This document shows positions 2,358 through 45,699 of a stretch of DNA of 64,000 nt, in pieces (position 1 is the stretch's first letter; the number at the start of each line of letters is the position of its first letter). Position numbers and translations under genes: made by a program. The notes beneath the pieces were generated by a model. It did not search any database. It was not told where the DNA came from and worked only from the letters and a program-made list of their open reading frames with translations. The stretch is taken from assembly GCA_963802945.1 (NCBI GenBank), contig CAWDKY010000025.1:96001-160000 (forward strand), read 5' to 3'. The stretch comes from an uncultured delta proteobacterium (GTDB lineage: Bacteria > Desulfobacterota > RBG-13-43-22).

Positions 2358-2963
2358 ATGAAAAGAAATCCCGTAATGTTTTATGTGGCGATCCTATTTT
2401 TAATGATTATAGCGGCGGCGTTCATTTATAATAACTTTTCTCACATTTATCCCAGAACTTCTGCTTCTTCTGGGACGCCTTCCGAATTCAAATATCCTAG
2501 CTCACCTTCGTCAGGAGAGTCCTCCAGATTCAAATATCCCGGCCCCCCGGCCTTTAGCGTCGATATTCCGAAAGACTTCCAAAGAGGAACTCCAAAAGCC
2601 AAAGAAGGACAAATCCTTACCGGGAAAACAGCTTCCGGAGTCGTTGTAACCTTATCCGTCTTTAATATCCCAAAAGACATTTCAATGGAGGATAACGGAC
2701 CAAAGACCTTCCGTCCCCGTCTGGCCGGAGTTAAAAATCTTAAAATCGATGATATCAAAATGATTAGCAATGAGAAATTTGAACTGGATGACGGTACCCC
2801 AGCCTGGAAGTGCGAGATGAAATGGCCTTCCCGGGGCTCGACTATTATCACAACTTATTTGATAACCGCAGATAAAGATGGGAAGCGAGTCACAATAGCG
2901 GGCCACTCGTGGTCCAAACAAGCCGAGGCTTTAGGAATTCTTCAAAGTCTGAGTTTTAAATAA
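2358..2963 (+). CDS. Membrane-anchored exported hypothetical protein
   Basis: N-terminal TM helix; RBS aaggag; internal 14-aa tandem duplication (xFKYPxxP). Confidence 0.65.
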   Translation: MKRNPVMFYVAILFLMIIAAAFIYNNFSHIYPRTSASSGTPSEFKYPSSPSSGESSRFKYPGPPAFSVDIPKDFQRGTPKAKEGQILTGKTASGVVVTLSVFNIPKDISMEDNGPKTFRPRLAGVKNLKIDDIKMISNEKFELDDGTPAWKCEMKWPSRGSTIITTYLITADKDGKRVTIAGHSWSKQAEALGILQSLSFK

Positions 2964-2982
2964 ATAGTGAAAGGGATTTGTT

Positions 2983-4116
2983 ATGAGAGAGGTTGTTGTT
3001 ATTGGGGCCGGATTGCATCGATATGGGGTTTTTCCGGATAAATCGATTTCCGACCTTGGCACAGAGGCCATTAGAAACGCCCTTCAAGATGCCCGAATGG
3101 AATGGAAGGATATTGAGGCCGCTTATTGCGGCACAATTCAACCGGGAATATCCACCGGACACCGGGTATGTAATAAAATGGGTTTGACCGGTCTGGGGAT
3201 TACTAATGTGGAAAATGCCTCAGCCAGCGGCTCTTCGGCCTTCAGAGAGGCTTACCTTTCGGTGGCTTCGGGGGAAAATGATATCGTCCTGGCCTTTGGG
3301 GTCGATAAACTCAACCCACCTCCGCCGGTTCTGGCAGGGACGAAAGAGAAAAAAGAAAAGCAGGCGATGTCGGAATCCAAACCCAAAAGACAATTACCCG
3401 TTCAACATTTCGCCGCCATGGCCCGTCATTATATGAAGGAATACGGCCTAACTCTGGAGCAATTAGGTCAGATCTCGGTCAAAAGCCATTACAATGCCAG
3501 TCTGAATCCCTACGCTCAGTTTCAAAAGACCGTCACCTTGGAAGAGGTCATGAGCTCCCGCATGGTTGCCGATCCCTTGACCGTGCTTCAATGCTGTCCT
3601 AGGGATGAAGGGGCGGCTGCGGTCATTGTCTGTGCCAAGGAGGTTGCTAAAAGATATACGGACAAAATGTGCCCGACTGTTGCCGCCTCTGTTCTCAAAA
3701 GTACATCCCCTGGCGGGGATTTCTTGGTTAATCTTACCAAGACATCGGCACAGGCCGCCTATGACAGGGCCGGGATAGGGCCGGAAGATCTGGATCTCAT
3801 CGAATTGCACGATGCCTTTACCATCGAGGAGATCATCTACTCCGAGGCACTCGGTCTATGTCCCAGGGGACAAGGGGCCAAGCTAGTTGAGGAAGGGGTA
3901 ACTTCTCTTAGCGGCCAACACCCGATTAACACCAGCGGGGGCCTTATCTCCATGGGGCATCCCATCGGGCCGACCGGTGCTGGTCAGATAGCCGAAATAC
4001 TATGGCAAATGAGGCGAGAATGCGGCCGGCGCCAGATTCCCAAACCTGTCAATTGGGCCCTGGCCCACATGGTCGGAGCAGGGGGGGTGTGCCTTATTCA
4101 TCTTTTCAAGAAATAG
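2983..4116 (+). CDS. SCP2-type thiolase-family protein with Ser at the nucleophile position
   Basis: NVENASASGS (normally NAC), IELHDAFT, SGGLISMGHPIGPTG. Confidence 0.85.
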   Translation: MREVVVIGAGLHRYGVFPDKSISDLGTEAIRNALQDARMEWKDIEAAYCGTIQPGISTGHRVCNKMGLTGLGITNVENASASGSSAFREAYLSVASGENDIVLAFGVDKLNPPPPVLAGTKEKKEKQAMSESKPKRQLPVQHFAAMARHYMKEYGLTLEQLGQISVKSHYNASLNPYAQFQKTVTLEEVMSSRMVADPLTVLQCCPRDEGAAAVIVCAKEVAKRYTDKMCPTVAASVLKSTSPGGDFLVNLTKTSAQAAYDRAGIGPEDLDLIELHDAFTIEEIIYSEALGLCPRGQGAKLVEEGVTSLSGQHPINTSGGLISMGHPIGPTGAGQIAEILWQMRRECGRRQIPKPVNWALAHMVGAGGVCLIHLFKK

Positions 4117-30167: not shown

Positions 30168-30962
30168 TCAGGCTCCTTTAAAAACCGGCCTCCTTTTTTC
30201 TGCAAAGGCTCGTTTGGCCTCTTCATGGTCATCGCTGACGGCAGCCTGTATTCTCAGCGAGTGGAAGGTTTCAATATCTCCGGCCGAAGAAACGGGGTTT
30301 TCGGCAAGCCGGCTGAGTATATATTTAGAGCCGCACAGCGAGAGCGGAGCGCATTTGGTTATTTCATCGGCCATTCCATAGGTGTAGGCCTCCAATTGAT
30401 CGTGATCCACCAAATGGTTTACCAGGCCCATAGTCAGACATTCCTGACTATCATAGGTACGGCCGGTTAGAAATATTTCCAGAGCCGTACTGTATCCCAG
30501 CACATTTAAAAAGCGCCTGAATCCCCGGTAGCTTGAAATCAAACCCATTCTAGATGTAGGGATTCCCATTTTAACGTTTTTTGAAGCGATTCGAATATCA
30601 CAAGCCATGGCCAGGACGCATCCTGCTCCCAGCGTGTAGCCATAAAGCATAGCGATAACGGGAAATGGGAACATCTGGATGGCTTCAGAAGCCATTTGGG
30701 AGTCCCCTTGGTCTTTCCTGGCCTCAACCGAATCTCCTCTTCTGGGCATGGCCGTAATATCCGCACCCGCGGAAAAGGCCTCCTCTCCGGTCCCCCGGAG
30801 TATCACCACTCGGATGTTTTTATCCTGAGATAGTTCTTTAAAGGTTTGGGTGATCGTAAAAAGACAGTCGGGGTTGAGGGCATTGTGTTTCTCCGGATTG
30901 TTGATGATCAGGGTACATACGGGTCCCTCTTTGACGACAATTAAATTTTTCTTCTCCTCCAT
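30168..30962 (-). CDS. Enoyl-CoA hydratase/isomerase family
   Basis: NPEKHNAL, FSAGADI, ACDIRIA, AFAEKRRPVFKG; the usual catalytic Glu residues are not evident (GAGCVL, GIPTSRMG). Confidence 0.88.
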   Translation of the reverse strand: MEEKKNLIVVKEGPVCTLIINNPEKHNALNPDCLFTITQTFKELSQDKNIRVVILRGTGEEAFSAGADITAMPRRGDSVEARKDQGDSQMASEAIQMFPFPVIAMLYGYTLGAGCVLAMACDIRIASKNVKMGIPTSRMGLISSYRGFRRFLNVLGYSTALEIFLTGRTYDSQECLTMGLVNHLVDHDQLEAYTYGMADEITKCAPLSLCGSKYILSRLAENPVSSAGDIETFHSLRIQAAVSDDHEEAKRAFAEKRRPVFKGA

Positions 30963-31116
30963 GGGCTTTCCTTTTTATGACTTTTTTATAAATTGACTTG
31001 GCGAGAAAAATGATTTCAAATATAAAAAAAGGATAGGTTATATTTAGATTTATATTTTTAAGTCTGATGTGATGTCAAGTAAAAATAAAGTGGATATGAA
31101 GGAGGAAACGGCGGCT

Positions 31117-32310
31117 ATGCAACCTTTGTCGGGAATACGGATTCTGGATTTGTCGCGTATGGTGGCCGGCGCCTATTGTTCCCTGATCCTAGGCGATCTG
31201 GGGGCCGAGGTGATTAAAATCGAACAACCTAAGATAGGAGACGATACCCGCCAATGGGGGCCACCCTACATTAACGGGGAGAGCGCTTATTTTCTTTGCA
31301 TCAACCGGAACAAACAAAGCCTGACTCTTGATTTTCGGAAGGATAAGGCCAAGGAAATTTTTCTCAGTCTCGTCCGGCAATCCGACGTGGTGATCGAGAA
31401 TTTTCGTGCCGGGTTCATGGAGAAATACGGATTAGGTTATCAGGAGCTCAAGAAAATAAAACCGGATCTGATTTACTGTTCGATCACCGGCTACGGAAGA
31501 TCCGGACCCTATAAAGACCGGCCGGCAACCGACACGGCCATCCAGGCCATGGGAGGTCTCTTCGGCCTGGTCGGCGAGGCTAAGGGGAAACCCTATCGGG
31601 TCCCATTACCCATGATAGATATGGCCTCAGGCCTCTATGCCCACGGGGCTATTTTAGCTTGCCTGATCAGGCGTGGTCAAGACAAGCAGTCCCATTTCAT
31701 CGAGGTCTCTCTGATGGACAATATGCTTTCCCTTCTGCTGAACTTTGGGAGCAACTACCTCTTGACCGGTCAGGTTGAAGAGCGCCAAGGCAATGCCAGT
31801 CCCAGCATCGTTCCCTCAAACGTATTTGAGACCAAAGATCGCCATGTGTTTTTAACTGCCAGCAACGACACCCGATTTAGAAAACTCTGCCAAACCATCG
31901 GTCTGGGGCATTTGGCTGACGATTCGCGATTCACTACAACAGGAGCCCGAATGGAAAACCGTCTGGAATTAGAGAAACTGATCCAGGAAAGGCTGAAAGA
32001 GAAGACGGTTGGTGAATGGATGGAGTTAATGTATGAAAATGGAGAAGGGATCCCCTTCGCTCCTATCAGAACCCTGGACGAGGTCTTCCAGGACCCCCAG
32101 GTCATGGCCCGGGGTATCGTCCAGGAAATCCAACATTCGTTGATCGGGACACTGCGGATGATCGGGCCGACCGTTTTATACGACCAGATTCGGGGCCGCG
32201 TCCAAATGCCGCCCCCCAGGTTGGGTGAACACAATCGGGAAATACTGAAAAAATTTCTGGGGTATGATGAAGAACAGATCGGACGACTGGAAAAGGATGG
32301 GGTGATTTGA
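31117..32310 (+). CDS. Class III CoA-transferase
   Basis: PLSGIRILDLSR, GDDTRQWGPP, NRNKQSL, PMIDMASG, PPRLGEHN; RBS aaggagg. Confidence 0.93.
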   Translation: MQPLSGIRILDLSRMVAGAYCSLILGDLGAEVIKIEQPKIGDDTRQWGPPYINGESAYFLCINRNKQSLTLDFRKDKAKEIFLSLVRQSDVVIENFRAGFMEKYGLGYQELKKIKPDLIYCSITGYGRSGPYKDRPATDTAIQAMGGLFGLVGEAKGKPYRVPLPMIDMASGLYAHGAILACLIRRGQDKQSHFIEVSLMDNMLSLLLNFGSNYLLTGQVEERQGNASPSIVPSNVFETKDRHVFLTASNDTRFRKLCQTIGLGHLADDSRFTTTGARMENRLELEKLIQERLKEKTVGEWMELMYENGEGIPFAPIRTLDEVFQDPQVMARGIVQEIQHSLIGTLRMIGPTVLYDQIRGRVQMPPPRLGEHNREILKKFLGYDEEQIGRLEKDGVI

Positions 32311-32449
32311 ACATAATAGGGAAGCGACTAAACTCATGAAAGAGGACATCGACATCCACATCCAGGTCAGTTTTTATTCACTCTTACGATTTATAAATTA
32401 TATTTTGGGCAGCAGGCCCTAACGATTTGACCCTACTACCCCTTTTGAT

Positions 32450-32472
32450 GGCAGGGATTGGATGTCCCTGCC
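32450..32472. terminator. Hairpin between convergent units, possible terminator
   Basis: ggcaggga-ttggatg-tccctgcc 8-bp stem. Confidence 0.4.
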
Positions 32473-32533
32473 TCTTGATTCTTTCGGGTTCCCAAATAAT
32501 TTTTGGATCATAAATAATTGGTTAGAATAAGCT

Positions 32534-32583
32534 GGGGATACTTCCCGGATTAAATCAGTATCAATGAAATAAGGAAGTGCCTC
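32534..32583. repeat. Left copy of the imperfect direct repeat/hairpin bracketing the defence block
   Basis: ggggatacttcccggattaaatc matches 37499-37521 at 18/23; inverted arm ggaagtgcctc. Confidence 0.5.
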
Positions 32584-32631
32584 TGGGTTTTCCTCCCTTT
32601 GTCCTTTTTCAAGGGCTGACCCCGTTGCCTC

Positions 32632-33324
32632 TCACGAAAGTCCAGCCTCTCGGGCACTTCTTGTGCTGAAATCAAGACGCTGATTAACTTCAGATGAAGG
32701 TATGACTTCCGAGGTAATGTCGAGGAGACTGCCAATAAAGAGTTTTCTAGGCGTGTCGGAACCAGGCTCTACAACAATTCGAAACTCATTTTGATAAGCG
32801 AATATTGAACGCTTGCGGAAGCGCCCAGTTTCACCTGAGTACTCCTCAGCATCGTAGTATTCAACCAGCCCGGCTGTGGGGTTAAGGCCAGCATCCTTAG
32901 CAGCACCAAAAACGCGATTTAAGAACTCGGTAGGGTTCAAGACAAGCGCGCATGAATCCCCAAACTGAAAATTCTTAGGGTTAACCAATTCCCCATCAAC
33001 TGGTTTTGTCACGGCAAACATGCAATACACATTGCATGATGCAGTCCTCTGTAGCCCGATTCGAACCGGTCCGGCCAATTCCAATGGGTTTACGGTGAAT
33101 TTACCGAGACCTATCTTACTCCCGTCAAGTATGATTTCGGCATGCTTGGGCTGGATAATGGTTGTCGTTCCCTCAAAGCAGTCGCCTCTTGCCGTATCCG
33201 ATTCGAGTTTGGCAAACTCGGCCAACGACTTCATATATAGCAGCCCCTCCCTACAAAACGCCTGAATGTGCTTTTTTTCCCCAAACTTCAAGAGGGCATA
33301 AATTATTTGTTTGGCTTCTAACAT
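32632..33324 (-). CDS. Hypothetical protein, DUF2971-like (possible ADP-ribosyltransferase-like fold)
   Basis: LLKFG..G.LYM, RGD.FEG, VYCM, VEYYD, FRKRSIFAYQNEFR, IGSLLDI; RBS gaggtg. Confidence 0.6.
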   Translation of the reverse strand: MLEAKQIIYALLKFGEKKHIQAFCREGLLYMKSLAEFAKLESDTARGDCFEGTTTIIQPKHAEIILDGSKIGLGKFTVNPLELAGPVRIGLQRTASCNVYCMFAVTKPVDGELVNPKNFQFGDSCALVLNPTEFLNRVFGAAKDAGLNPTAGLVEYYDAEEYSGETGRFRKRSIFAYQNEFRIVVEPGSDTPRKLFIGSLLDITSEVIPSSEVNQRLDFSTRSAREAGLS

Positions 33325-33500
33325 TGATCACCTCTCTGCGGAAATCTCTCGAATGCGGCCGGATAGATCTGTGCCTCGTTGAAGCTCACTTGCGAATCGT
33401 TCTGGGTTCGGCACAACTGATTTGTTCGGCGAGTTTTTCGTGATTCCCATCTCGGCTTCCGCTAGGGCACCATCTGCCCGACTGTTGGGCGGTGTCATCG

Positions 33501-36377
33501 TCAGGATTCACCTTCAACGAGTTTGATTTCTTCTTCCGTAAGGCCGTACAGTTCGTACACCATACGGTCGATCTCCGCGTCGGTCGCCGTGAAGGCATTC
33601 TGCAATGCGGCTTTTTCGGGTTCTGATGTGGCCCCGCGCAGTTTTGGCGTCAGCGCCAGCATCTTCTCCACCAGCAGTACCAGCTTGTCGTGCCGCGCTT
33701 TGTCGGACGGCTTTTTTGAATCAATCTTGGGAAAAGGAAGCTCCCGAGTTTGTTTGATAATCGTTTTTGGAAAGTCGTCGCGACGAGCAACCATGTTAAC
33801 CTGGCAAAAGAACCATGAGATGAGCCGACTATTGAGGATGGCCAGAATACACTTTATATTAGGAAATGTGTTTCGTGGAATCAGGTTTTGAACTGATTGG
33901 TTAGTTAAAAATTCTGCCTCGGAATACACAGCTTGCAGCCGGAATTTTCGGCCGAGTAATTGTCGCAACAGAATCCGCTGTCCGCTGAAGAACTTGATTG
34001 GTTTTCTGGCCTCGATGTCAGGCGGATAACCTTCATACGCTTCCGGCCCAAGGTCCAACTCATAGCGCAGCATCTCACCATTGAATGCGCGCTTCGGCAT
34101 TCGGCAATCCTTTGCAGGACGAGGATTGTAGGTTTCGATGCCTCGCATCACTTCAACCGCCGAGTCCAACATGGCTGGACTTCCCCTGAGCTTCTTCACC
34201 AAAGCCGCCTGCTCTTTGGAAGACAACACCAAGAATTCTTTGTCGGGCGATCCAATCCAGTCAGCGTAGTTGCCTACCTTTCTGAACAAATCAAAATCCT
34301 TCGGGCCTTCGACCTTCCGCCGGATTGGAAAGACGACCAAGTCAACTGTCGTGTCTTCCAAGTCTGTCCATCGTTTATTAGAAACTAAGCGCTGCGCCGT
34401 TACAATGATAGTGTCAATGTATGCTCCATCGAATACATCGTAAGGAAGCGAAACGAATGACGTTGGACGAAACTGTTCAGCAAATCGTTCGCGAAGCTTT
34501 TTTGATGAAGGCGTTGAAACCCAACCTGACGGAATAATCATACCGAAGTGTCCTTGGGGATTCAGCAAATCACCAGTCTGTTCTACGAACATGATGAACG
34601 AGTCGATTGAGTTTGTGACGGCGCGGAATCTATTTCGAATGTATGCTTCCCACTCTTTATCGAAGTCTGCACCATACGGTGGATTGCCGATGATGGCATC
34701 GAAGCCTCCGGTTTTCATGGCGTCGGGGAACTGCGCGTGCCAGTCGAAGGCTCGGACGCGGACGAGGTCTTCGGGAATCATGGAGAAGTCGGAGGCGATA
34801 AGGGAGTTTCCGCATTTGATGTTTTGGGATAGATTCGGCAATGCACGTTCGTGGAAGAGGTTCATCTGACGGGAGAGGGTAGTGTCGTTTTCGCCTTCGA
34901 GGGCCTTCAGCAGCAACGAGAGCTTGGTGGTTTCGACGGCCTGCCGGTCGATGTCAACGCCGTAGATGTGAGTGGTGAGGATGCGTTTGCGTTCGGCGAT
35001 GGTGAGACGGGTTTCACCTTTGGCGTTCTCATAAACGGCTTTGGCGTGTTTTTTGGAGAAGTTGTCCTGATACCATTTCAGGTAATGGTCGAGCAGTAAC
35101 TGATAGGCGCCGAGGAGGAAGGAGCCGCTCCCGCATGCCATGTCGAGCACGCGGAAGGAGGGCGTGGTTTTGCCGCCAGCAAGATCGGCGGGGCTTTTGC
35201 CTTCAATCTGTTTGCCGATGGTGTTGAGGACGATGTAGTTCACGATATAGGCGGGGGTGTAGTACACGCCGCCGGCCTTGCGCACTTCGGGCTTTTCCTC
35301 TACTTTGGCCTGATGCCCGGCAGTCAGGCGGATGACTTTGCCGAGGAAGCGTTCGTACACCGTGCCGAGGATTTCCACGGGTAGGACGCCGAAGTTGTAC
35401 GGACTGCCATGCTCAAAGTAGAGGCTTTGGAGAATGGGCTTGAGGGCATTATCGTCCACGGCTAGACGCGGCGTTAGCGTGTCCGGCGCATCAGAGACGC
35501 CGGGTTCTTTCTGGAAGTGGAACAGGCCAGAGTTGTATTTCTGATCGGCCTTACGGCACAATCCGTTAATAAAACGGTCGTAAATGGCCGGTTGCACGCA
35601 GAGTTTGAGTAGTTGCCCGTAAGACTCCAGTCCGCGATCCTCGGCCATCCGCAGAAAGATGATCCGGTCAATAATCCGCTGAACGGCGTTGTTGAGGTCC
35701 TCTACCGACAAATCGCTGTTGCGTAGGGCGAGGTTTCGTGCCAGTACATCGCGCCAGCCTTCGATATCCTTCAGAAACTCGCTGTCAACCTCGGAGGTGC
35801 CTCGCTTACGTTTGGAGGCAGCATACTGGTCGAAGTTCCCAGACCAGACGGCCTCGCGCGAGAAAACGTTCCAAATCTCCCGCCAACAGTCAGGATACTC
35901 GTTGAACAGGAAATACTGGATACGGGCATGGCTGGCCTTATCTCCGGGTCGCGGGCGAGAGGTACAATCGTACACGCCTAGTTCCCCGAAGTCGGTCAGG
36001 ATAGACAGGGCAAGCTTGGCGCTGAAGCCGTAACGGCGAAGTTGATAGGCCGGTGCGGGATCGGTGCTGATATTGACGCCGCACTTCTTGGCTTCGACGT
36101 AGAACTTCGGCAATGTGCCGACCCGGAAGGTGTAGTCGGGGGCCTTCTGTTGACCTTCCACATCCAGACTGTCTTCGGGGACGACTTCGCGATATTGGGG
36201 TGCTACCATGGTGTCGTTGCGCACGTCCCAGCCAAGGGCCTCGAAAAAAGGATCTATGAGTGATTGGCGGACGTGGGCTTCCTTGACTCCAGGAGCGAGG
36301 TAGGACTGCTGGTTAGTGGCGAAGTATTGACACAGCTTTGCAACTTCATCTTTGCCTTGATCGAATGTCTTACTCAT
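33501..36377 (-). CDS. Type IIG restriction-modification enzyme (fused endonuclease, N6-adenine methyltransferase and TRD; Eco57I/TaqI-C-like)
   Basis: APDY...YVEAKK (PD-ExK), GVYYTP, VLDMACGSGSFL (motif I), IIGNPPY (motif IV), ILNSRL, VYELYGLTEEEIKLVE. Confidence 0.92.
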   Translation of the reverse strand: MSKTFDQGKDEVAKLCQYFATNQQSYLAPGVKEAHVRQSLIDPFFEALGWDVRNDTMVAPQYREVVPEDSLDVEGQQKAPDYTFRVGTLPKFYVEAKKCGVNISTDPAPAYQLRRYGFSAKLALSILTDFGELGVYDCTSRPRPGDKASHARIQYFLFNEYPDCWREIWNVFSREAVWSGNFDQYAASKRKRGTSEVDSEFLKDIEGWRDVLARNLALRNSDLSVEDLNNAVQRIIDRIIFLRMAEDRGLESYGQLLKLCVQPAIYDRFINGLCRKADQKYNSGLFHFQKEPGVSDAPDTLTPRLAVDDNALKPILQSLYFEHGSPYNFGVLPVEILGTVYERFLGKVIRLTAGHQAKVEEKPEVRKAGGVYYTPAYIVNYIVLNTIGKQIEGKSPADLAGGKTTPSFRVLDMACGSGSFLLGAYQLLLDHYLKWYQDNFSKKHAKAVYENAKGETRLTIAERKRILTTHIYGVDIDRQAVETTKLSLLLKALEGENDTTLSRQMNLFHERALPNLSQNIKCGNSLIASDFSMIPEDLVRVRAFDWHAQFPDAMKTGGFDAIIGNPPYGADFDKEWEAYIRNRFRAVTNSIDSFIMFVEQTGDLLNPQGHFGMIIPSGWVSTPSSKKLRERFAEQFRPTSFVSLPYDVFDGAYIDTIIVTAQRLVSNKRWTDLEDTTVDLVVFPIRRKVEGPKDFDLFRKVGNYADWIGSPDKEFLVLSSKEQAALVKKLRGSPAMLDSAVEVMRGIETYNPRPAKDCRMPKRAFNGEMLRYELDLGPEAYEGYPPDIEARKPIKFFSGQRILLRQLLGRKFRLQAVYSEAEFLTNQSVQNLIPRNTFPNIKCILAILNSRLISWFFCQVNMVARRDDFPKTIIKQTRELPFPKIDSKKPSDKARHDKLVLLVEKMLALTPKLRGATSEPEKAALQNAFTATDAEIDRMVYELYGLTEEEIKLVEGES

Positions 36378-36419
36378 AAGTGCCCAATCCTTATCCCCGG
36401 TTACCCGCAACAATCAGAC

Positions 36420-36476
36420 GCCCAACATATAAATCAGCCGACACAGAAGGAAGGAGGCTGGATTTTTTTGTTAGCC
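36420..36476 (-). mobile_element. Integron attC site (57 bp)
   Basis: Minus strand: R'' GGCTAAC - 5 nt - L'' AATCCAGC - VTS - L' GCTGATT - 5 nt - R' GTTGGGC. One extra base in L''. Upstream gene's TAA lies inside R''. Confidence 0.85.
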
Positions 36477-37250
36477 ATCGGTTACTACTTCCGGCAAACC
36501 GAGTTTTCTGCGGTACTCGTTGAAGGCCGCGCGTTGATTTGGATCTCTGTGCTTCCAGTAGAACTGGAATTCGTACGGCTTTGCTTCCGGCATCCGAAGA
36601 TCCTCGGACCGTGCGGCCATGTCGTCGAACAGCAACTCTACATCGGGCTTGATGGGCTGACCACCTCGCGTCACCGTAGGGTCGTAATCCGGGTACAGGG
36701 TCATGTAGTTGGTTCCCATGCCAATGGCGTTAATGAGATCATGGGCAGCCGTCGCGAGTTCCCGAAGATCTACGAACGTGACCCGGGAATTATTGCTGTT
36801 GGACGGCTGGCTGGTGATGGCTTCCCTGTCGAGGTGCGCAAAAATACTATGGCGTAGGCGACTGATCCTCCCTTCGATTTGGTTGATTCGGCGATCTACG
36901 TCACTGGAGCGCAGCTTGGCAGCAATCGAGTTTCGCGCAACGTCATCGCGGGCATTCGACATTACCTCGTTCCGAAGTTGACGTAGCGTGAGAGAGTCAC
37001 CATTCGTATCAAGCAGAATCCGCCACAGTCCCACGACTACTGCCGTTTCGAGCGATCCACGAACGAGCTTCCAAAACGGCCCCGGATGCTCAACGAAAAG
37101 GTCGAAGGGGAACCGCGCCACATGCTCAAGCACGAACAACGTAGAACGAATTCTTGCCAACTGGTTGTGCAGAACACCGATCTGCGCCTTGTAGGTCGGT
37201 ATCCAAGACTCGACGAGTAATTCCTCTGGTCTAAGGTCCATGGTTTTCAC
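36471..37250 (-). CDS. HEPN-domain (AbiU2-like) putative RNase in an integron cassette
   Basis: Helical protein with RLRHSIFAH (Rx4-6H) and an upstream LWRILLD...SLTL motif; start GTG 37250 or ATG 37241. Confidence 0.7.
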   Translation of the reverse strand: MKTMDLRPEELLVESWIPTYKAQIGVLHNQLARIRSTLFVLEHVARFPFDLFVEHPGPFWKLVRGSLETAVVVGLWRILLDTNGDSLTLRQLRNEVMSNARDDVARNSIAAKLRSSDVDRRINQIEGRISRLRHSIFAHLDREAITSQPSNSNNSRVTFVDLRELATAAHDLINAIGMGTNYMTLYPDYDPTVTRGGQPIKPDVELLFDDMAARSEDLRMPEAKPYEFQFYWKHRDPNQRAAFNEYRRKLGLPEVVTDG

Positions 37251-37254
37251 GTAT

Positions 37255-37290
37255 GGCTAACAATTAATATACGAACTTCGTTTTTTCCTA
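37255..37290 (-). mobile_element. attI-like core site at the head of the cassette array
   Basis: ...aacgaagttcgtatattaattGTTAGCC; core is the exact complement of the cassette's R'' GGCTAAC; no attC-type inverted repeat upstream. Confidence 0.55.
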
Positions 37291-37303
37291 CTTTATACTC
37301 TTC

Positions 37304-37344
37304 ATTATAACACCCCATTATATTTAAGAAAAGGTAAAAGTCAC
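37304..37344 (-). promoter_or_regulatory. Pc-like promoter(s) reading into the cassette array
   Basis: Minus strand GTGACT-16 bp-TATAAT, plus a second extended -10 TGTTATAAT at 37312-37304. Confidence 0.55.
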
Positions 37345-37498
37345 ATAATAATAAATAAATAGCTATGTTCACGACTTCGTATTTTTTGTTGATAAGAAGC
37401 AAAAACGATATTCGTAATAAATGGAAAGTTTCCCCATTACTATAAAAGGTAATTTGGGGGTGAATTAAAACACGAGGCTGTGTCAAGAAGGAGAAACC

Positions 37499-37548
37499 GG
37501 GGACACTTCTATGATTAGATCTATTTTTAAAACGGGGGAGGCGTCTTT
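37499..37548. repeat. Right copy of the imperfect direct repeat/hairpin bracketing the defence block
   Basis: ggggacacttctatgattagatc; decayed inverted arm ggaggcgtcttt. Confidence 0.5.
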
Positions 37549-37557
37549 AGATTTCTT

Positions 37558-38004
37558 TTAATCTGATCCGTTTCGACTATTTTTACTGTGAACATCGTCT
37601 TTTGAGCTCGATGGCTTGTAATGAGCAAGCCAGAAAAAGGCAAAAGATATTAAAGTGGTAATAAAAGCTATGGTGAAGGCCAGTGATTTCCCGTGCCATA
37701 AACCGTCCAACCAAAGCCTGAATTCAGTAACAAGTACATTGGCCTTTCCGCCATAAAGTTCTAAATCCCGTGAATATTTTTTTGAATCTTCAGGCCTAAT
37801 TGGATAAACAGATCCATTTCCTTCTTCGTAACCCAAAACGTAGTTCGGATTATTATCCGCTGTTTGATAAATCCAAGTGGCGCTAATCAAACCAACCAGG
37901 AGGATAACGATGCTGAGGGCATTGAAATAAACATGCGGATCTTTAATATTCCATATCATATCGTGCCTATTTAAAATCATGTCTTTCTTTGGCTGGACGA
38001 TCAT
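37558..38004 (-). CDS. Small two-TM membrane protein downstream of mdtC (start uncertain)
   Basis: Two hydrophobic segments flanking SKKYSRDLELYGGKANVL...LWHGKSLA. Confidence 0.6.
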   Translation of the reverse strand: MIVQPKKDMILNRHDMIWNIKDPHVYFNALSIVILLVGLISATWIYQTADNNPNYVLGYEEGNGSVYPIRPEDSKKYSRDLELYGGKANVLVTEFRLWLDGLWHGKSLAFTIAFITTLISFAFFWLAHYKPSSSKDDVHSKNSRNGSD

Positions 38005-38005
38005 A

Positions 38006-38104
38006 GATACTGGTTTCTTGATTCTGGATACTAGATGCTGGATTGGCTTTATCTAGAATCGAGTATCGCTTTTCGTTTTTATCCAGCTTCAAGTATCCAG
38101 CATC
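38006..38104. repeat. Heptamer repeat hairpin (GATACTG/CAGTATC family)
   Basis: gatactg...ggatactagatgctggat...atccagcttcaagtatccagcatc; same family as 30.1 kb. Confidence 0.6.
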
Positions 38105-38154
38105 ATTTCAAAAGATTGAGACCACACCATCGTAATCGGGTGTTCTGAATTTTA

Positions 38155-41100
38155 TTACTGCCCTTTGTTCCCCGTTGACCTCAACCCTTTCAGCCAAAGC
38201 CTGAACCGGTCAAGATACAGGTACATGACCGGTGTGGTATAGAGGGTAAGTAGTCTGACTGATGACCAGTCCGCCGACGATGGAGATACCCAGGGGGCGA
38301 CGAATCTCTGAGCCGACGCCCCGTCCTAGGGCCAGGGGAACGGCACCGAGCAGAGCCGCCATGGTGGTCATCATAATCGGTCTAAACCGCAACAGACAGG
38401 CTTGGTAGATGGCCTCAACCGGACTTACCCCCCCTTTGCGTTCGGCTTCTACAGCGAAGTCAACCATCATGATGCCGTTTTTTTTGACGATCCCGATAAG
38501 CAGGATGATCCCGATAAAGGAAATGACCGTCAGTTCGGATCGGAAGATCAGGAGGGCCAGGAGCGCCCCTACACCGGCTGAGGGTAAGGTGGACAGGATG
38601 GTGAGGGGGTGGATGGTGCTTTCATAAAGGATGCCGAGTACGATATAGACCGTTATCAGTGCGGCCAGGATCAGAAGGGGTTGGTTGGCTAAAGAGGCCT
38701 GGAAAGCCTGGGCCGTTCCTTGAAAACTGCCATGGATGCCAGCCGGGAGCACCATCTGGTGTGTGGCCGCCTGTACTTCTTCCACGGCCTCACCGAGCGA
38801 TTTTCCCGGCCGTAAATTGAAAGAAGTGGTGACCGAAGGAAACTGGCCCTGGTGATTCACGGCCAACGAGGTGTTATTCCGCTCAAACCGGCTAAAGGCG
38901 CTAAGCGGCACCATGGCTCCGTTGGTGGCGCGGACATAGATATCTCGCAGTGTCTCGGGGTTTTCCCAGAAGGCCGGCTCGACCTCCATCACGACGTGGT
39001 ATTGATTTAGGAAGGTATAGGAGATCGACACCTGCCGCTGGCCGAAGGCGTCATAAAGGACGTCATCGATCATCTGGGGCGTAATGCCGAAGCGCGAGGC
39101 CGTATCACGGTCGATGACCAAAGTGGCTTCCCGCCCTTTATCCTGCTGGTCACTGCTCACATCAACCAAGGCTGGCAAGGTTCGGAGCCGCTGTAAGATA
39201 CGCGGGGCCGAGGTAACCAAGTCCTTCAAGTTGTCTCCCTGGAGGGTATACTGATACATGGCATTACTTGACCTTCCCCCAATGCGCAGGTCCTGCACCG
39301 GTTGAAGATAGGTCGGGGCCCCCGGTACTTGGTTCAGCTTTTTGCGCAGCCGGGCCATCACCTCGCTGACACTGGCTTTCCGCTTGCCAAAGGGTTTTAA
39401 GGAAATAAACATGCTCGCCTTGTTGGCGGCAGTGCCCCCTCCTCCTCCGCCTCCGGTAAAACCTGAGGCAAAGACTACCTCCGGGTCACTTTTTATGATC
39501 TCCAGGACTTTGGTCAGCTTGGCCTTCATGGCCTGAAAAGATATATCCTGCTCGGCCTGAATGGTTCCGGCAATCCGTCCGGTATCCTGCTCCGGGAAAA
39601 AGCCCTTGGGGATAAAGACAAACAAGACCCCATTGGTCACCACAGTGACCAGCAACACGAGGAGCATCAACCGGGAGTGGCTAAGGGCCCAACGCAGGGT
39701 TATTTCATAGCGACGGTGCATCCAGTTAAAGGCCCCTTCGCTGGCTGCATAGATCCGTCCATGGGCGCCGGTCTTCCCCGGTCTTAAGAACACAGCGCAC
39801 ATCATGGGTGTCGTGGTCAGCGATATGACCAATGAAACCATAATAGCCGCGGATAGCGTGACGGCGAACTCTCGAAACAGACGGCCTACCATACCGCCCA
39901 TGAGTAGGATGGGTAGGAACACGGCCACCAGAGAAGTACTCATGGAAAGAACAGTGAAGCCGATCTCCTGGGCCCCCAGAAAGGATGCCTCAAGGGAGGA
40001 CATCCCCCCCTCAACATGGCGGGTGATGTTTTCGAGTACCACGATGGCGTCATCCACGACAAATCCGGTGGCAATGGTCAGGGCCATCAAAGAAAGATTA
40101 TCCAGGTTGTAGCCGAACAGATACATCACCCCGAAGGTACCCACTAATGAAACCGCCACCGCGACAGCGGGGATGATGGTCGAACGGATGGTTCGCAGAA
40201 AGCCGAAGACGACCAGGATCACGAGGAAAAAAGAGACGATCAGCGATCGTTCAACGTCTCTCAAGGAACCGCGAATCGAAGGAGTTCGGTCCATAACGAT
40301 GAAAAACTCCACCCCTCCGGGCATGGCGGCTTGAAGCTGAGGCAGAAGGTCCTTAACACGATCTACCGTCTCGATGATGTTGGCCCCTGGTTGTCTAAAA
40401 ATAACCACCACCACCGACGGTTTTCCATTGACCATTCCGGCAGCGCGCAGATCCTCGAGCGAATCTTCTACCTTGGCTATATCAGGGAGATGCACGGCCG
40501 CGCCGCTTCGGTAAGTGATGATTAAGGGCAGGTACTGGCTGGCGGTCCGCATTTGATCGTTGGTCTGGATCTCCCAGGTCCTGTTTTCACCGTTCAGTTG
40601 CCCCTTAGGCCGGTTTACATTGGTCTGGCTAAGAACACTTCGGACATCATCCAGACTGATCCCGTATTTGTTGGCCGCATGGGGATTAACATCCACACGC
40701 ACGGCCGGTAAGGAACTGCCGCCGACAAAAACCTGGCCAACCCCTTCGACCTGAGACAGTTTTTGTTGCATAATACTTGAGGCTGCGTCATACATCTGGG
40801 CCGGAGTTAAAACGTCGGAGGTAAGGGCAACGAGCAGCACAGGCGCATCGGCCGGATTGACCTTTCGGTAGATCGGAAGGCTTGGAAGATTGGCCGGCAG
40901 AAAACCCCTGGCGGCGTCGATGGCTGCCTGTACGTCCCGGGCCGCTCCATTGATATTACGGTCCAGATCAAACTGCAGGACGATGGAGGTGGAGCCGCGG
41001 AAGCAGGTCGAAGTCATTTCCGTGACCCCGGCGATGTGCCCGAACTGCCGCTCCAGCGGCGCGGCCACGGATGTGGCCATGGTTTCGGGATCCGCCCCGG

Positions 41101-41253
41101 CAAATTCGCCGATACATAGATCGTTGGAAAATCGATCTGAGGCAGGGGTGATACGGGCAGCAGGCGAAAGGCGATTAGGCCGGTCAGCCCCAGACCTATG
41201 GTCAAAAGGGTAGTGGCTACCGGTCGGGTGATAAAGTGGGCGGAAAGATTCAT
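38155..41253 (-). CDS. mdtC: RND efflux transporter MdtC (frameshifts near 41100 and 38250)
   Basis: [66 protein letters not shown]; third gene of an A-B-C operon. Confidence 0.85.
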
Positions 41254-44200
41254 GGCAATTTCAAGGAAGGGTCTTCATGTCTTGATCTTTTTGCAGGACG
41301 ATTCTTTATCCGTTTAGCCAACCGATCAAAACCCAGATAAATGACCGGGGTCGTATAGAGGGTTAGAATCTGGCTGATGATCAATCCCCCGACGATGGAT
41401 ATACCCAGTGGGTGTCGCAACTCCGAACCGACTCCGCCGCCTAAGGCCAGAGGCAGGGCCCCGAGCAGGGCGGCCAGGGTGGTCATCATGATCGGCCGAA
41501 ATCGCAGGAGAGAGGCCTGATAAATGGCTTCCACCGCATCCTTACCTTCTTTACGCTCGGCATCGAGGGCGAAATCGACCATCATGATCCCGTTTTTCTT
41601 GACGATACCGATCAGCAGAACGATACCGATCAGGGCAATGACACTGAATTCCGTACCGAACATCAAAAGGGCCAGGATTGCCCCCACACCGGCTGAGGGC
41701 AAGGTGGACAGGATGGTGAGGGGGTGGATGTAGCTTTCATAGAGTATGCCCAGGACGATATAGACGGTGATCAGAGCGGCCAGGATCAGCCAAGGCTCAT
41801 TGGCCAAAGAGACTTTAAAGGCCTGGGCCGTTCCTTGAAAGCTGCCCTGGATGCTGGCCGGAAGTCCCAGTTGCTGAGCGGTCGTTTCCACGGCCTCGAC
41901 GGCCTTTCCCAAAGAGGCCCCCCGTTCCAGGTTGAAAGAGACGGTCACTGAGGGAAATTGTCCCTGACGGCTGATAAGCAGCGGTCCTGTGGTCTCTGAG
42001 ATCCGGCTGATGGAACTGAGCGGTACCTGACTCCCACTGCTGCCCCGGAGATAGATATCACCCAGTTTGTCGGGATTTTTTTGAAACTCGGGCTTGACCC
42101 CCAGAATCACCCGATACTGGTTCAACTGGGTAAAGATGGTCGAGACGATCCGCTGACCATAGGCGTTGTAAAGGGTGTCGTCGATGAGCTGAGGCATGAT
42201 GCCGAAGCGGGAAGCCGTGCTGCGGTCGATATCTATGGCCAGACGAAGCCCTTTGTCCTGTTGATCGCTGCTCACCTCCTTCAGCTCGGGTCGTTTGCTC
42301 AGGGCCTCAACCAGCTTGGGGGCCCAGGTGTACAACTCGTTGGCATCAGGGTCCTCCATGGTATACTGAAACTGGGTGCGACTGACCCGGGCATCCACCG
42401 TCAGATCCTGCACGGGCTGCATAAAGAGCTTTGACCCCTTCCACTTTGTCCACTTCCCCTTGAAGGCGGTGGATCACCTCGCTGGCACTGATCTTTCGTT
42501 CCTCCAAGGGTTTGAGGTTGATCAGAATACGTCCGCTGTTGAGTGTGGCATTGGTCCCATCTATACCGATGAAGGAAGACAGACTCATCACCGCCGGGTC
42601 ACGGAGGATGACCTGGGTTAAGGCCTGCTGACGCCTGGACATAGCCGGAAAAGAGACCGACTGGGGCGCCTCGGAGATACCCAGAATGACCCCTGTATCT
42701 TGAACCGGGAAAAAACCTTTAGGTACAATCAGGAACAAGACCACGGTGAGGACCAGCGTTCCTACGGCCACAAGCAGAGTGGCCTGCTGACGCAAGAGGA
42801 CCCATCGCAAGGTCCGGCCGTAAAAGGCGATAATACGATCGAACATCACTCCGGACGTCCGGTAAAATCTTCCTTGTTTCTCTTTAGGGGTATGTTTAAG
42901 TATCTTGGCACACATCATGGGGGTTAGGGTCAGCGAAACGACGGCAGAAATGAGGATGGTTACTCCCAGGGTAATGGCAAATTCCCGGAACAATCGGCCC
43001 ACGACATCACCCATAAATAAGAGAGGAATAAGAACGGCGATGAGGGAAACGGTTAAAGACAAAATGGTGAACCCGATCTGTTTTGATCCTTTGAGGGCTG
43101 CTTGGAGAGGAGATTCCCCTTCTTCGATGTACCGGGCAATATTCTCTATCATGACAATAGCGTCATCCACCACAAAGCCGGTTGAAATGGTCAGGGCCAT
43201 CAGGGAAAGATTGTTCAGACTAAATCCCAAAAGATACATAACCCCAAAGGTCCCTACCAGAGAAAGCGGGACGGCTACGCTGGGGATGGTCGTGGCCGAA
43301 AAATTGCGCAGGAAAAGAAAGATGACCAGAATGACCAGGGCCACGGCCAGCATCAATTCGAACTGGACATCTCTGACCGAGGCTCGAATGGTCGTCGTCC
43401 GGTCGGTCAGTATGGAAACTTTTATGGCTGGAGGGAGAGAGCTCTGGAGATTGGGCATGAGTCTCTTGATTCGATTAACGACTTCGATGACATTGGCCCC
43501 CGGCTGTCGTTGGATATTGAGAATCACGGCCGAACTGTTGTTCATCCAGGCCGCCTGTTGTATATTTTCCGCATCATCGATGGCCTCGGCCACGTCGGAT
43601 ATCCTGATCGGGGCCCCGTTTCGATAACCAACAATCAATGGCCTATACTGATTACTGGAAAAAAGCTGATCATTAGCCCCAATAATGTAAGCTTGGCGAG
43701 GGCCGTCAAAGGTGCCCTTGGCTTGATTGACGTTGGCGTTGGCAATGGAGGACTGCAGGTCTCCCAAAGTCAATCCGTAACTGGCCAGGGTCGTGGGGTT
43801 GGCCAGAATCCGGACGGCCGGTCTTTGCCCGCCGCTGATGCTTACCAGGCCCACACCGGGCAATTGGGAGATCTTTTGGGCAAACCGGGTGTCAGCCAGG
43901 TCTTCAATGTCTGGAAGAGGCAAGGTCTTGGAAGTCAGGGCCAGGGTGAGAATCGGTGCATCAGCCGGATTTACCTTGCTATACACCGGCGGATTGGGAA
44001 GATCCTTAGGGAGAAAGTCAAAGGCCGCATTGATGGAAGCCTGGACCTGTTGTTCGGCTACATCCAGACTGAGTTCTAAGGTGAATTGAAGGGTGATGAC
44101 CGAACTGCCGCTTGAACTGGTAGAGGTCATTTGAGTCAGGCCGGGCATCTGGCCGAATTGGCGTTCTAAGGGGGCGGTCACCGATGAGGCCATCACGTCG

Positions 44201-44367
44201 GGACTGGCCCCGGGATAGAAGGTTCGAACCTGGATGGTGGGGTAATCCACCTGGGGCAGTGCGGAGACCGGTAACTGACGGTAGGCCACGGCCCCGGCCA
44301 GAAAAATAGCCACCATCAACAGGGTCGTGGCTACCGGCCGTGTGATGAAGGGTTGAGAAATGTTCAT
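41250..44367 (-). CDS. mdtB: RND efflux transporter MdtB (frameshift near 42425)
   Basis: [44 protein letters not shown]...SRTQFQY. Confidence 0.88.
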
Positions 44368-45584
44368 CAGCCGCTCCGTCCTCCACGGCCGTTCCCTGGC
44401 CCCTTCAATTCCACTTTTGCACCTTCCCTGAGTCTTTCGGCGCCATCCACTACAACCAGGGCCCCCGCAGGCAACCCTTGATCGATAGAGGCTTCTCCGC
44501 CTTGAATTTCACCTACGGTGATGGGACGGAGCTCAACCGTTTGATCGGCTTTGACGGAATAGACATAAGTACCCTGTGAGCCTCGTTGGATGGCCGCTGC
44601 CGGGATGATAATGGCCTTGTGTTTTATATCAACCAGCAAGCTGGCATTGACAAACTGATTGGGGAACAGTTGCTGGTCCTTATTTTCAAACATAGCCTTG
44701 AGCTTAAAGGTCCCGGTGTTGGGATCGATTTGGTTATCGACGGTCAGAAGAAATCCGCTGGCCAATTTTTTGCTCTGCTCCCGATCATAGACATCCACTT
44801 GCGGCCGCTGTCCGGCCTTAAGCTGGGGCAGCACCCGAGCCAGGCTATCTTCGGGAAGGGAAAAGATGACGGTGATGGGTTGAAGTTGGGTGATGACCAA
44901 TAGGCCGTTCGGGTCAGTGGCGTGGACGATATTACCCGGATCGACAAGACGTAACCCGATTCTTCCGCTGACCGGGGCGGTGATCTTGCTGTAAATCAGT
45001 TGTAGCTTGGCGTTATCAATCAGACCTTGATCGGTCTTGATAGTACCTTCATACTGGCGAACCAGGGCTTCCTGAGTATCCAGCATCTGTTTCTGAATAA
45101 GATCTTGTTTCCATAAGGTACGGTAGCGTTCCAGATCGTCCCGGGCGTTTTTAAGGATCGCCTGGTCTCGGGCCATTTGCCCCTCAGCCTGGGTCAATTG
45201 AACCTCAAAAGGCCGGGGATCGATTCGGGCCAGTAGTTGACCGCTGGCGACGATTTGACCTTCCCGGAAAAGGACCTCCATGAGTTGCCCGTCAACACGG
45301 CTCTTGATGGTGACGGTATTGATAGGGGTTACGGAACCCAGACCATTGAGAAAAACCTTCATGTCGCCCTCTTTGGCCGCTACGGCCATCACTGGTATGG
45401 CCCGGACAGGGGGAGAAGTTTCTTTTTTAGCGATCCCTGGTTGTTTGTTTTCGGACTTACCCCAATAAGTAAAGGTCCAGGCTCCGGCAAGAACGACTAC
45501 CACCAGAGTGATCCACCAAAACCTGAGTAAAAAACCACGACGGCGTTTTGGTAACTCACTTATACCTTTATTTTTTTCGTCCAT
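44367..45584 (-). CDS. mdtA: RND periplasmic adaptor MdtA
   Basis: [57 protein letters not shown]. Confidence 0.9.
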
Positions 45585-45670
45585 AAGATCCTTTCCAAAA
45601 AAAATACCAATTTTTTTGTGCCCTTTGCAGTCTGAATGGGTTATTGCCAAGAAATCCGGCGCAGTATTAT

Positions 45671-45699
45671 AAAGTAGCAGACGCAAGCCTGGCCGTCAA
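45671..45699 (-). promoter_or_regulatory. Candidate sigma-70 promoter of mdtABC
   Basis: Minus strand TTGACG-17 bp-TACTTT with TG at the extended -10 position. Confidence 0.45.

Follow-up and report, generated by a model that had tools for sequence, protein, structure and literature searches.

A probable integrase-less integron-type island behind a multi-copy promoter/attI-like module in an uncultured delta proteobacterium

Stretches of attC sites without an integron-integrase (CALIN elements) are a class named in the IntegronFinder paper (PMC4889954), and a preprint deals with SALIN elements and shows by experiment that an integrase acting in trans can insert at genomic 'attG' positions outside att sites, with GWT as target (bioRxiv 10.1101/2022.09.11.507474). 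Phage-defence genes as integron cassettes are the subject of the preprint 'Mobile Integrons Encode Phage Defense Systems' (bioRxiv 10.1101/2024.07.02.601719), and sedentary chromosomal integrons are called 'biobanks' in work cited in PMC12614218. In the usual picture there is one integrase, one docking site and one array, and integrase-less arrays are taken as debris or stray insertions. Here we analyse a 64,000-nucleotide stretch (the window) of contig CAWDKY010000025.1 (C25) from the genome of an uncultured delta proteobacterium (GCA_963802945.1, henceforth G000), in which an AbiU2-family HEPN gene, a Type IIG restriction-modification (RM) gene and a third gene lie co-oriented on the minus strand, as a preliminary description made by a model from the sequence alone had recorded. 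We consider it likely, with good though not full confidence, that positions 32475-37535 form a horizontally acquired, integrase-less integron-type island that is read on the minus strand. What had been seen as a 7-mer core in front of the HEPN gene terminates a multi-copy promoter/attI-like module, and this module is the most interesting part of the locus.

As far as CALIN and SALIN elements are portrayed in the sources above, the locus resembles them in its cassette(s) with attC, the lack of an integrase nearby, the small array, the lack of a flanking transposon and a proposed route of insertion in trans. It differs from them in that its cassettes stand behind a conserved multi-copy promoter/attI-like module that arrived with the cassettes, in that only one attC is intact and in its deduced target, G/AG (the slash marks the crossover) versus the reported GWT. 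With the phage-defence cassettes, as the preprint presents them, it shares predicted defence genes in cassette form that would be read from an upstream promoter, whereas those cassettes belong to complete integrons that have an IntI. As first stated, namely as an array of defence cassettes that lacks an integrase, the locus is of kinds already in print (defence cassettes, CALIN/SALIN). For multi-copy, integrase-less attI/promoter platforms we found no paper in literature searches that were not aimed at that question.

The inserted island and its two cassettes

The comparison set held 21 genomes of the class, including 13 same-genus relatives of G000, to which G001, G002, G004, G005, G007, G009 and G010 belong; G034 comes from another family of the same phylum. 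The G000 assembly consists of 72 contigs with 6.72% contamination. In public sequencing runs just 6-8% of the sampled words of the stretch were present and no reads from the organism itself were found; contigs from such runs cover relatives of the RM gene rather than G000's organism.

Sequence comparison identified the 5,061 bp of the island as an insertion with an exact empty site in G005, where the match to window positions 30902-32474 (91%) directly abuts the match to 37536-38300 (87%). This bears out the earlier proposal of an insertion between a CoA-transferase gene and an mdtABC operon: at the foot of a host hairpin, where two genes converge, the island is bordered on one side by the gene for a family III CoA-transferase and on the other by that for a 148-aa membrane protein, after which comes an MFP+RND (mdtABC-like) operon. 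Inspection of the junction sequences revealed neither a target duplication nor a terminal inverted repeat. The head of the island starts CCGTTTT..., which places a GTT at the upstream junction, and if the crossover lay at this GTT the host target would read ...CCCCCG/AGGCAGG, a site at which G005 differs by two C in the C-run. The junction is compatible with integrase-driven insertion at a genomic site other than an att site.

The first cassette extends from 37258 to 36421 and holds an AbiU2-type HEPN abortive-infection gene together with an intact 57-nt attC; in principle it would still be excisable. The open reading frame (ORF) scored against PF18734 (HEPN_AbiU2) with an E value of 4.6e-11 and 43 bits (cut-off 26.8), and its product carries the R-x5-H stretch RHSIFAH at residues 134-140 (R-x4-6-H motif), which aligns with the protein of a second AbiU2 cassette of G000; no close relative of the AbiU2 protein was found in species-representative genomes. 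On the minus strand GTTAGCC lies directly 5' of this ORF, the stop codon TAA falls within the R'' box GGCTAAC, and this box is the exact complement of the core, all as first described. The geometry, R''(7)-5-L''(8, one bulged C)...L'(7)-5-R'(7), likewise agrees with the 7-5-8...7-5-7 plan with one extra L'' base: two covariance models aligned the site end to end with 5-nt spacers, L'' and L' reading AATC[C]AGCC / GGCTGATT, and both placed the bulge on the 5' arm. The outer boxes GGCTAAC / GTTGGGC hold the AAC/GTT pair and pair at 5/7 positions, as expected of R'' and R'. The consensus of these boxes is RYYYAAC for R'' and GTTRRRY for R'.

Since Rfam, folding and a geometry scan were weak or unhelpful, the two models (R1 and R2) were home-made from attC-like sites of the lineage and represent the attC family of the genus, not IntegronFinder's model. 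Rfam gave no attC match within 31000-39000, a bare attC-geometry scan was rejected as unspecific (130 matches in the genome against 240 in the reversed control), and so was a loose search for the L'' motif, whose 707 matches were mostly random. R1 was seeded with 6 attC-like sites of the lineage, the window's site being left out; because its seeds had partly been chosen with the candidate's own pattern, R2 was built from relatives only, with 45 attC-like sites (42 distinct) that R1 had collected and aligned and no sequence from G000. In the R2 family the L helix is 93% paired and compensatory changes occur in 8/9 pairs, a covariation reached by 0/500 shuffles in an alignment that was itself fitted to the model. 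The site at 36476-36420 ranked first in the 64 kb with R1 (E 2.1e-5) and with R2 (E 2.2e-6 on the minus, gene strand; 20.2 bits on the plus strand). On the scale of the whole genome its E value was 0.0014. In the R2 scan of the window the runner-up, at a different site, had E 0.34, and nothing else fell below E 0.3. Homologous sites of 48-96 nt with R''/R' boxes and the same bulged L'' adjoin real intI genes of the genus. The preliminary description had made its reading depend on an attC covariance score for this site, and the site does score; of its term 'canonical', the geometry and the score hold up, and the departure of R'' from the consensus at position 2 does not fit. These sequence observations on the first cassette are real and well beyond chance, and the attC score together with the exact core/R'' match supports the cassette origin that had been proposed for the HEPN gene.

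The second cassette begins at 36425, behind the core GTTGGGC that, as first noted, opens the RM gene. The ORF (36413-33501) comprises 970 aa from a TTG, the ATG at 36377, with AAGGA upstream, being the likelier start. Its product matched PADLOC REase_MTase_IIG (PDLC03604; E 2.5e-177) and the Pfam domains HSDR_N (44-78), Eco57I (482-661), N6_Mtase and TaqI_C (777-893), and it conforms to the Type IIG domain plan of an N-terminal nuclease region, a gamma-class N6-methylase and a C-terminal specificity domain as judged from family matches. With its 2.9 kb this cassette is large by usual cassette size. The box GCCCAAC, 10 nt past the RM stop (33490-33484), had been predicted from the core GTTGGGC before that stretch was read, and no attC was found at 33490-33316 by folding, R1 or R2. 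In G034 an RM gene that is 91-92% identical at the nucleotide level has a full attC 3' of its stop (R2 30.6 bits), and one of its contigs (G034:C87) agrees with the window through R'', spacer and GG before diverging at window position 33477. A contig of a peat metagenome diverges at the same base and then continues like G034 into a full attC, and on a second contig of this metagenome homology is lost exactly at 36426, the 5' border of the cassette, after which a different attC-like arm follows. These breakpoints at 36426 and 33477 show the RM gene to be a travelling cassette, the window copy of which has lost its attC from L'' onward; with its attC cut after R'' and spacer, its 3' border is now fixed. 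The GTTGGGC/GCCCAAC pair and the homology breakpoints thus support a cassette origin for this gene also. The identity shared with G034, which has copies on C27 and C87, breaks off across the part that encodes the specificity domain (query 2815-3775), a sign that target recognition may have been swapped, and the copy on C27 has no upstream cassette border.

Both proteins match their families, the AbiU2 HEPN abortive-infection proteins and the Type IIG (Eco57I/MmeI-like) RM enzymes, above the curated cut-offs; their anti-phage role here is predicted, and the two would act against phages. The earlier wording of an attC array, or CALIN, does not hold: there is a single scoring attC, the RM attC is truncated after R'', spacer and 2 nt, and no attC accompanies the third gene, so that the two or more attC in a row that define a CALIN are not present. 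Nor is there an intI beside attI and array, as in a complete integron. The features are collected in Table 1.

Table 1. Features of the island and its border in window coordinates
Feature	Position	Strand	Remarks
Whole inserted island	32475..37535	-	5,061 bp; exact empty site in G005:C19
Island head, unique non-coding, upstream of module	37432..37535	-	no other genome copy by BLAST
Multi-copy promoter/leader module (attI-like platform)	37259..37431	-	ends ...ATTAATTGTT; other G000 copies are 75-83% identical
Core GTTAGCC, the crossover point at which cassette 1 starts	37255..37261	-	exact reverse complement of R'' GGCTAAC 36476-36470
AbiU2-family HEPN gene	36471..37250	-	259 aa from GTG 37250; ATG at 37241; Pfam PF18734 HEPN_AbiU2
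Intact attC of cassette 1, 57 nt	36420..36476	-	R1 28.9 bits; R2 34.3 bits; ends in GTTGGGC 36426-36420
Type IIG restriction-modification gene	33501..36413	-	likely start ATG 36377, 958 aa; PADLOC REase_MTase_IIG
attC 2 relic: R'' GCCCAAC, spacer AGTCG and GG	33477..33490	-	R'' complements GTTGGGC exactly
Gene 3, conserved hypothetical protein, 230 aa	32632..33324	-	85 homologues, all unnamed
Island tail, non-coding	32475..32631	-	no attC by R1 or R2
Host hairpin, outside the island	32450..32472	+	terminator-like; G005 has the hairpin too

A recurrent promoter/attI-like module

The cassettes are preceded by a non-coding head of ~280 bp, the last ~175 bp of which, the module, would serve as Pc plus attI. 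Its terminal 22-mer occurs in 10 copies in G000, and a 21-mer of the module was found in 10/13 genus relatives and in one genome of one sister genus, compared with 0-2 matches per genome for a reversed control pattern. In the aligned copies conservation halts at the GTT. The top sigma-70-like site of the region lies inside the module (GTGACT-16-TATAAT, 37344-37317), with TGnTATAAT conserved, and TGTTATAAT at 37312-37304 is kept in most of the aligned copies. The module would be made up of an extended -10 promoter, three ACGAA-N-TTCGT-like repeats, an A-run and the end ...ATTAATTG/TT, and its promoter would transcribe the cassette genes. Its last bases may resemble a Xer dif core.

If cassettes were docked at the GTT of each module copy, the complement of the copy's own core should follow downstream as the R'' box of the first cassette (the R'' rule). 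It did so within 2.5 kb in 16/24 module copies (P 7e-11, binomial), against 56/534 (10.5%) when the cores of other copies were used as a control; this tally covers only copies that end in GTT, and copies from kin genomes are not independent. Most of the matches start an attC that R2 scores, and for a further copy of the module, on contig C34, the R'' match was 6/7. The rule was confined to the first step, which the module core fixes; free 'chain walking' along complementary cores was dropped, as it yields long chains by chance. Behind other module copies lie genes for HNH nucleases, HicAB, an XhoI-type RM pair and the second AbiU2, and also genes unrelated to defence, namely for an enoyl-CoA hydratase, a cupin and a CMD protein.

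One module locus of G000 (C28) is orthologous to a locus of G005 (C14), with flanks that are 87-95% identical, and the two hold different cassettes: 2.1 kb of them in G000 versus 6.2 kb and no fewer than 5 attC in G005, where the first cassette is 96% identical to a cassette of another G000 array (on C14 of G000). The module locus on C15 presents the same pattern of turnover. Because the R'' rule holds in 16/24 copies and orthologous copies carry different cassettes, the module appears to behave as an orphan attI-like platform.

Of the arrays seen in G000 with a module at their head, the largest (C27:137000-142760, minus strand) contains at least 7 attC and encodes an HNH nuclease and a HicA/HicB pair. 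At two loci of G010 (C13 and C31) only 9 nt separate the module core GTTCCGG from its complement CCGGAAC and an attC-like site; each is a near-empty 'cassette' with little beyond an attC.

A genuine integron of the genus, on contig C174 of G007, consists of intI, a promoter (TTGTCA-17-TATAAT), a leader, an attI ending ...AACTTGTTAGCG and cassettes. It shares with the island the promoter, a leader with an A-run, a ...TTGTT crossover and a first R'' that complements the core, in obedience to the R'' rule, and the attC sites of integrons of this type belong to the same structural family as that of the window. Unlike this integron, the window's module has no intI beside it, and there is no significant sequence similarity between attI and module. 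Of the two hallmarks of an attI, the module possesses a conserved sequence that ends at G/TT and lacks the position beside intI. The attI/promoter type that adjoins intI in relatives (AAAACTTTAGAATAACTTGTT, promoter TTGTCA-17-TATAAT) is present in G000 as some 18-20 orphan copies, examples being C41:21442, C37:35334 and C33:37490. For these (type-A) copies of G000 the R'' rule was not significant (5/18 vs 15%, P 0.13).

Control of the module by LexA was rejected, as the palindrome CCATAC-N4-GTATGG upstream of lexA (G000:C28:129100-129182) is unlike the repeats of the module. This palindrome is a candidate SOS box of the lineage.

Integrase supply and competing explanations

As the preliminary description had stated, no tyrosine recombinase is encoded in the window: PF00589 had 4 matches in G000 and none on contig C25. 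In G000 as a whole no IntI was found with TIGR02249, the best match reaching 79.6 bits at a cut-off of 265. Above this cut-off IntI was present in 6/21 genomes of the class, all of the same genus (6/13: G001, G002, G004, G007, G009 and G010), a distribution that supports the suggestion of an IntI acting in trans or since lost. We propose that an IntI supplied in trans would have carried out the recombination; IntI genes do occur in relatives.

Several observations weigh against this reading of the island and its module. The module never adjoins intI, and among the matches listed for the 21 genomes only G004:C14 lies on an intI contig, at a distance of 45 kb; its sequence is not significantly similar to the genus's proven attI; and the genomes richest in modules, G000 and G005, have no IntI in their assemblies. 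One copy, on contig C72, stands directly behind a complete attC (R1 54.4 bits) and hence inside an array. The window's own attC is not beyond criticism: its R'' GGCTAAC has a G where the consensus RYYYAAC has Y at position 2, its hairpin is weak as DNA (dG -7.0 kcal/mol for the top and -5.8 kcal/mol for the bottom strand), its stem ends at the L box and leaves a 15-16-nt loop, and 4/6 of the R1 seeds were chosen with a pattern derived from this very candidate. As a lone attC it makes the locus a single-attC element under IntegronFinder's CALIN definition (at least 2 attC), and the deduced host target, G/AG, differs from the GWT that genomic insertions are reported to use. Finally, the G000 assembly is fragmented and contaminated, and arrays break assemblies, so that an IntI may be present in the organism and unassembled; the absence of IntI from G000 is weak evidence.

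A broader proposal covers all copies together. Tentatively, and with somewhat less than even confidence, we suggest a 'distributed integron', in which dozens of scattered promoter-bearing attI-like modules without an adjacent integrase, in at least two sequence families (10 copies of the window's type and ~18-20 of the type that adjoins intI), would be served by one trans-acting and often absent IntI. Those of the window's type would still be exchanging cassettes, and a module with its cassettes could also move as a unit to a new intergenic site, of which the island would be an example. About ten islands of G000, this one included, start with a common promoter/docking module and conform to the rule on cassette borders. 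If an IntI in trans does serve these modules, capture and expression of cassettes could spread over many chromosomal loci, and defence genes such as that of the AbiU2 nuclease, or that of the Type IIG enzyme with its close counterpart in another family, could be shuffled between loci.

The strongest competitor takes the module for a mobile promoter element with the cassettes as mere neighbours; it would be an ORF-less promoter cassette with an atypical recombination site, or else the outward end of an IS91-type or other transposable element. The attC directly upstream of the C72 copy speaks for it by placing a module within an array, as does the empty site in G005, from which the entire unit of module and cassettes is missing, so that the module travels with the island; genes for Y2 transposases are also present in G000. 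It nonetheless seems unlikely to us: the border falls at GTT in every tallied copy and the R'' rule holds at the frequency given above, which is the signature of IntI-type exchange at GTT, and the module is not recognised as an attC by R1 or by R2. IS91 elements use the target GTTC. The base after GTT is C in just 6/24 copies, 0/3 Y2_Tnp matches lie within 90 kb of a module copy, and a BLAST search of G000 with the module gave no match at the Y2 elements.

In contrast to unit insertion or construction in trans, the island might be the remnant of a complete integron that decayed in place, its intI having been deleted in situ. This is a common explanation of CALINs in the IntegronFinder paper (PMC4889954), and the truncated second attC does show decay. 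We rate it as very improbable for this island, given that the empty site of G005 is clean and retains nothing of intI, module or cassettes, that only 104 bp separate host DNA from the module, and that neither TIGR02249 nor PF00589 revealed an integrase relic at any of the 10 module copies in G000. A defence island of the ordinary kind that has nothing to do with integrons, with a weak terminator hairpin for the 57-nt site and coincidental 7-mer matches, could appeal to the weak attC hairpin, to a geometric scan that finds as many sites in the reversed control and to the chance 'chains' that permissive rules yield, but it is close to refuted by covariance models that put the site at the top of the 64 kb and favour the correct strand, by homologous bulged-L'' sites next to real intI genes, by RM breakpoints that coincide with the predicted cassette borders and by the P value of the R'' rule.

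The third gene and the flanks of the island

The preliminary description, right on the cassette origin and on the missing integrase, erred in calling the third gene 'DUF2971-like' and in describing the locus as composed of predicted anti-phage genes only. The protein had no match to a Pfam family at E up to 10 or to a PADLOC or NCBIfam entry at E up to 0.01, and 29 members of its family matched no Pfam family, DUF2971 (PF11185) included, at E up to 1. Its AlphaFold2 model, a confident one (pLDDT 88.9), gave no match in the PDB at E <= 0.001. Two of the three genes, AbiU2 and RM, are therefore predicted anti-phage genes, and gene 3 is without a family or solved-fold match.

Homology of gene 3 to its relatives is restricted to the coding region. 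Four homologues in metagenome-assembled genomes of Acidobacteriaceae have unrelated neighbourhoods, with a DNA methylase adjoining in 1/4 and an attC beside 0/4. At the end of the island TTCTAAC (32526-32520) complements the GTTAGAA at the start of gene 3, a weak match in AT-rich sequence with several candidate cores, and no attC was found at 32526-32470 by folding, R1 or R2; a site ending at GTTAGGG (32422) was rejected as an attC, as it lies within host DNA shared with G005. We count gene 3 neither as a probable cassette nor as a predicted defence gene, and the ~1-kb tail that carries it would have been joined by a non-canonical event.

Two repeats flank the locus. In the host DNA 3' of the CoA-transferase gene (32362-32434) there is a repeat of 60-73 nt with copies on C17, C30, C33 and C53 (77-89% identity), and between the 148-aa gene and the RND gene (38006-38124) a near-perfect palindromic, REP/MITE-like repeat of ~100 nt, which has many copies in G000 and the genus and caused spurious microRNA matches in Rfam. 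The mdtABC-like operon beyond it (38210-45686) appears damaged: one of its RND genes is broken into two ORFs (673 aa, 44367-42346; 390 aa, 42422-41250), and in the next (41080-38210) the profile match starts at position 57 and the C-terminus is aberrant. The damage is a matter of frameshifts or assembly errors.

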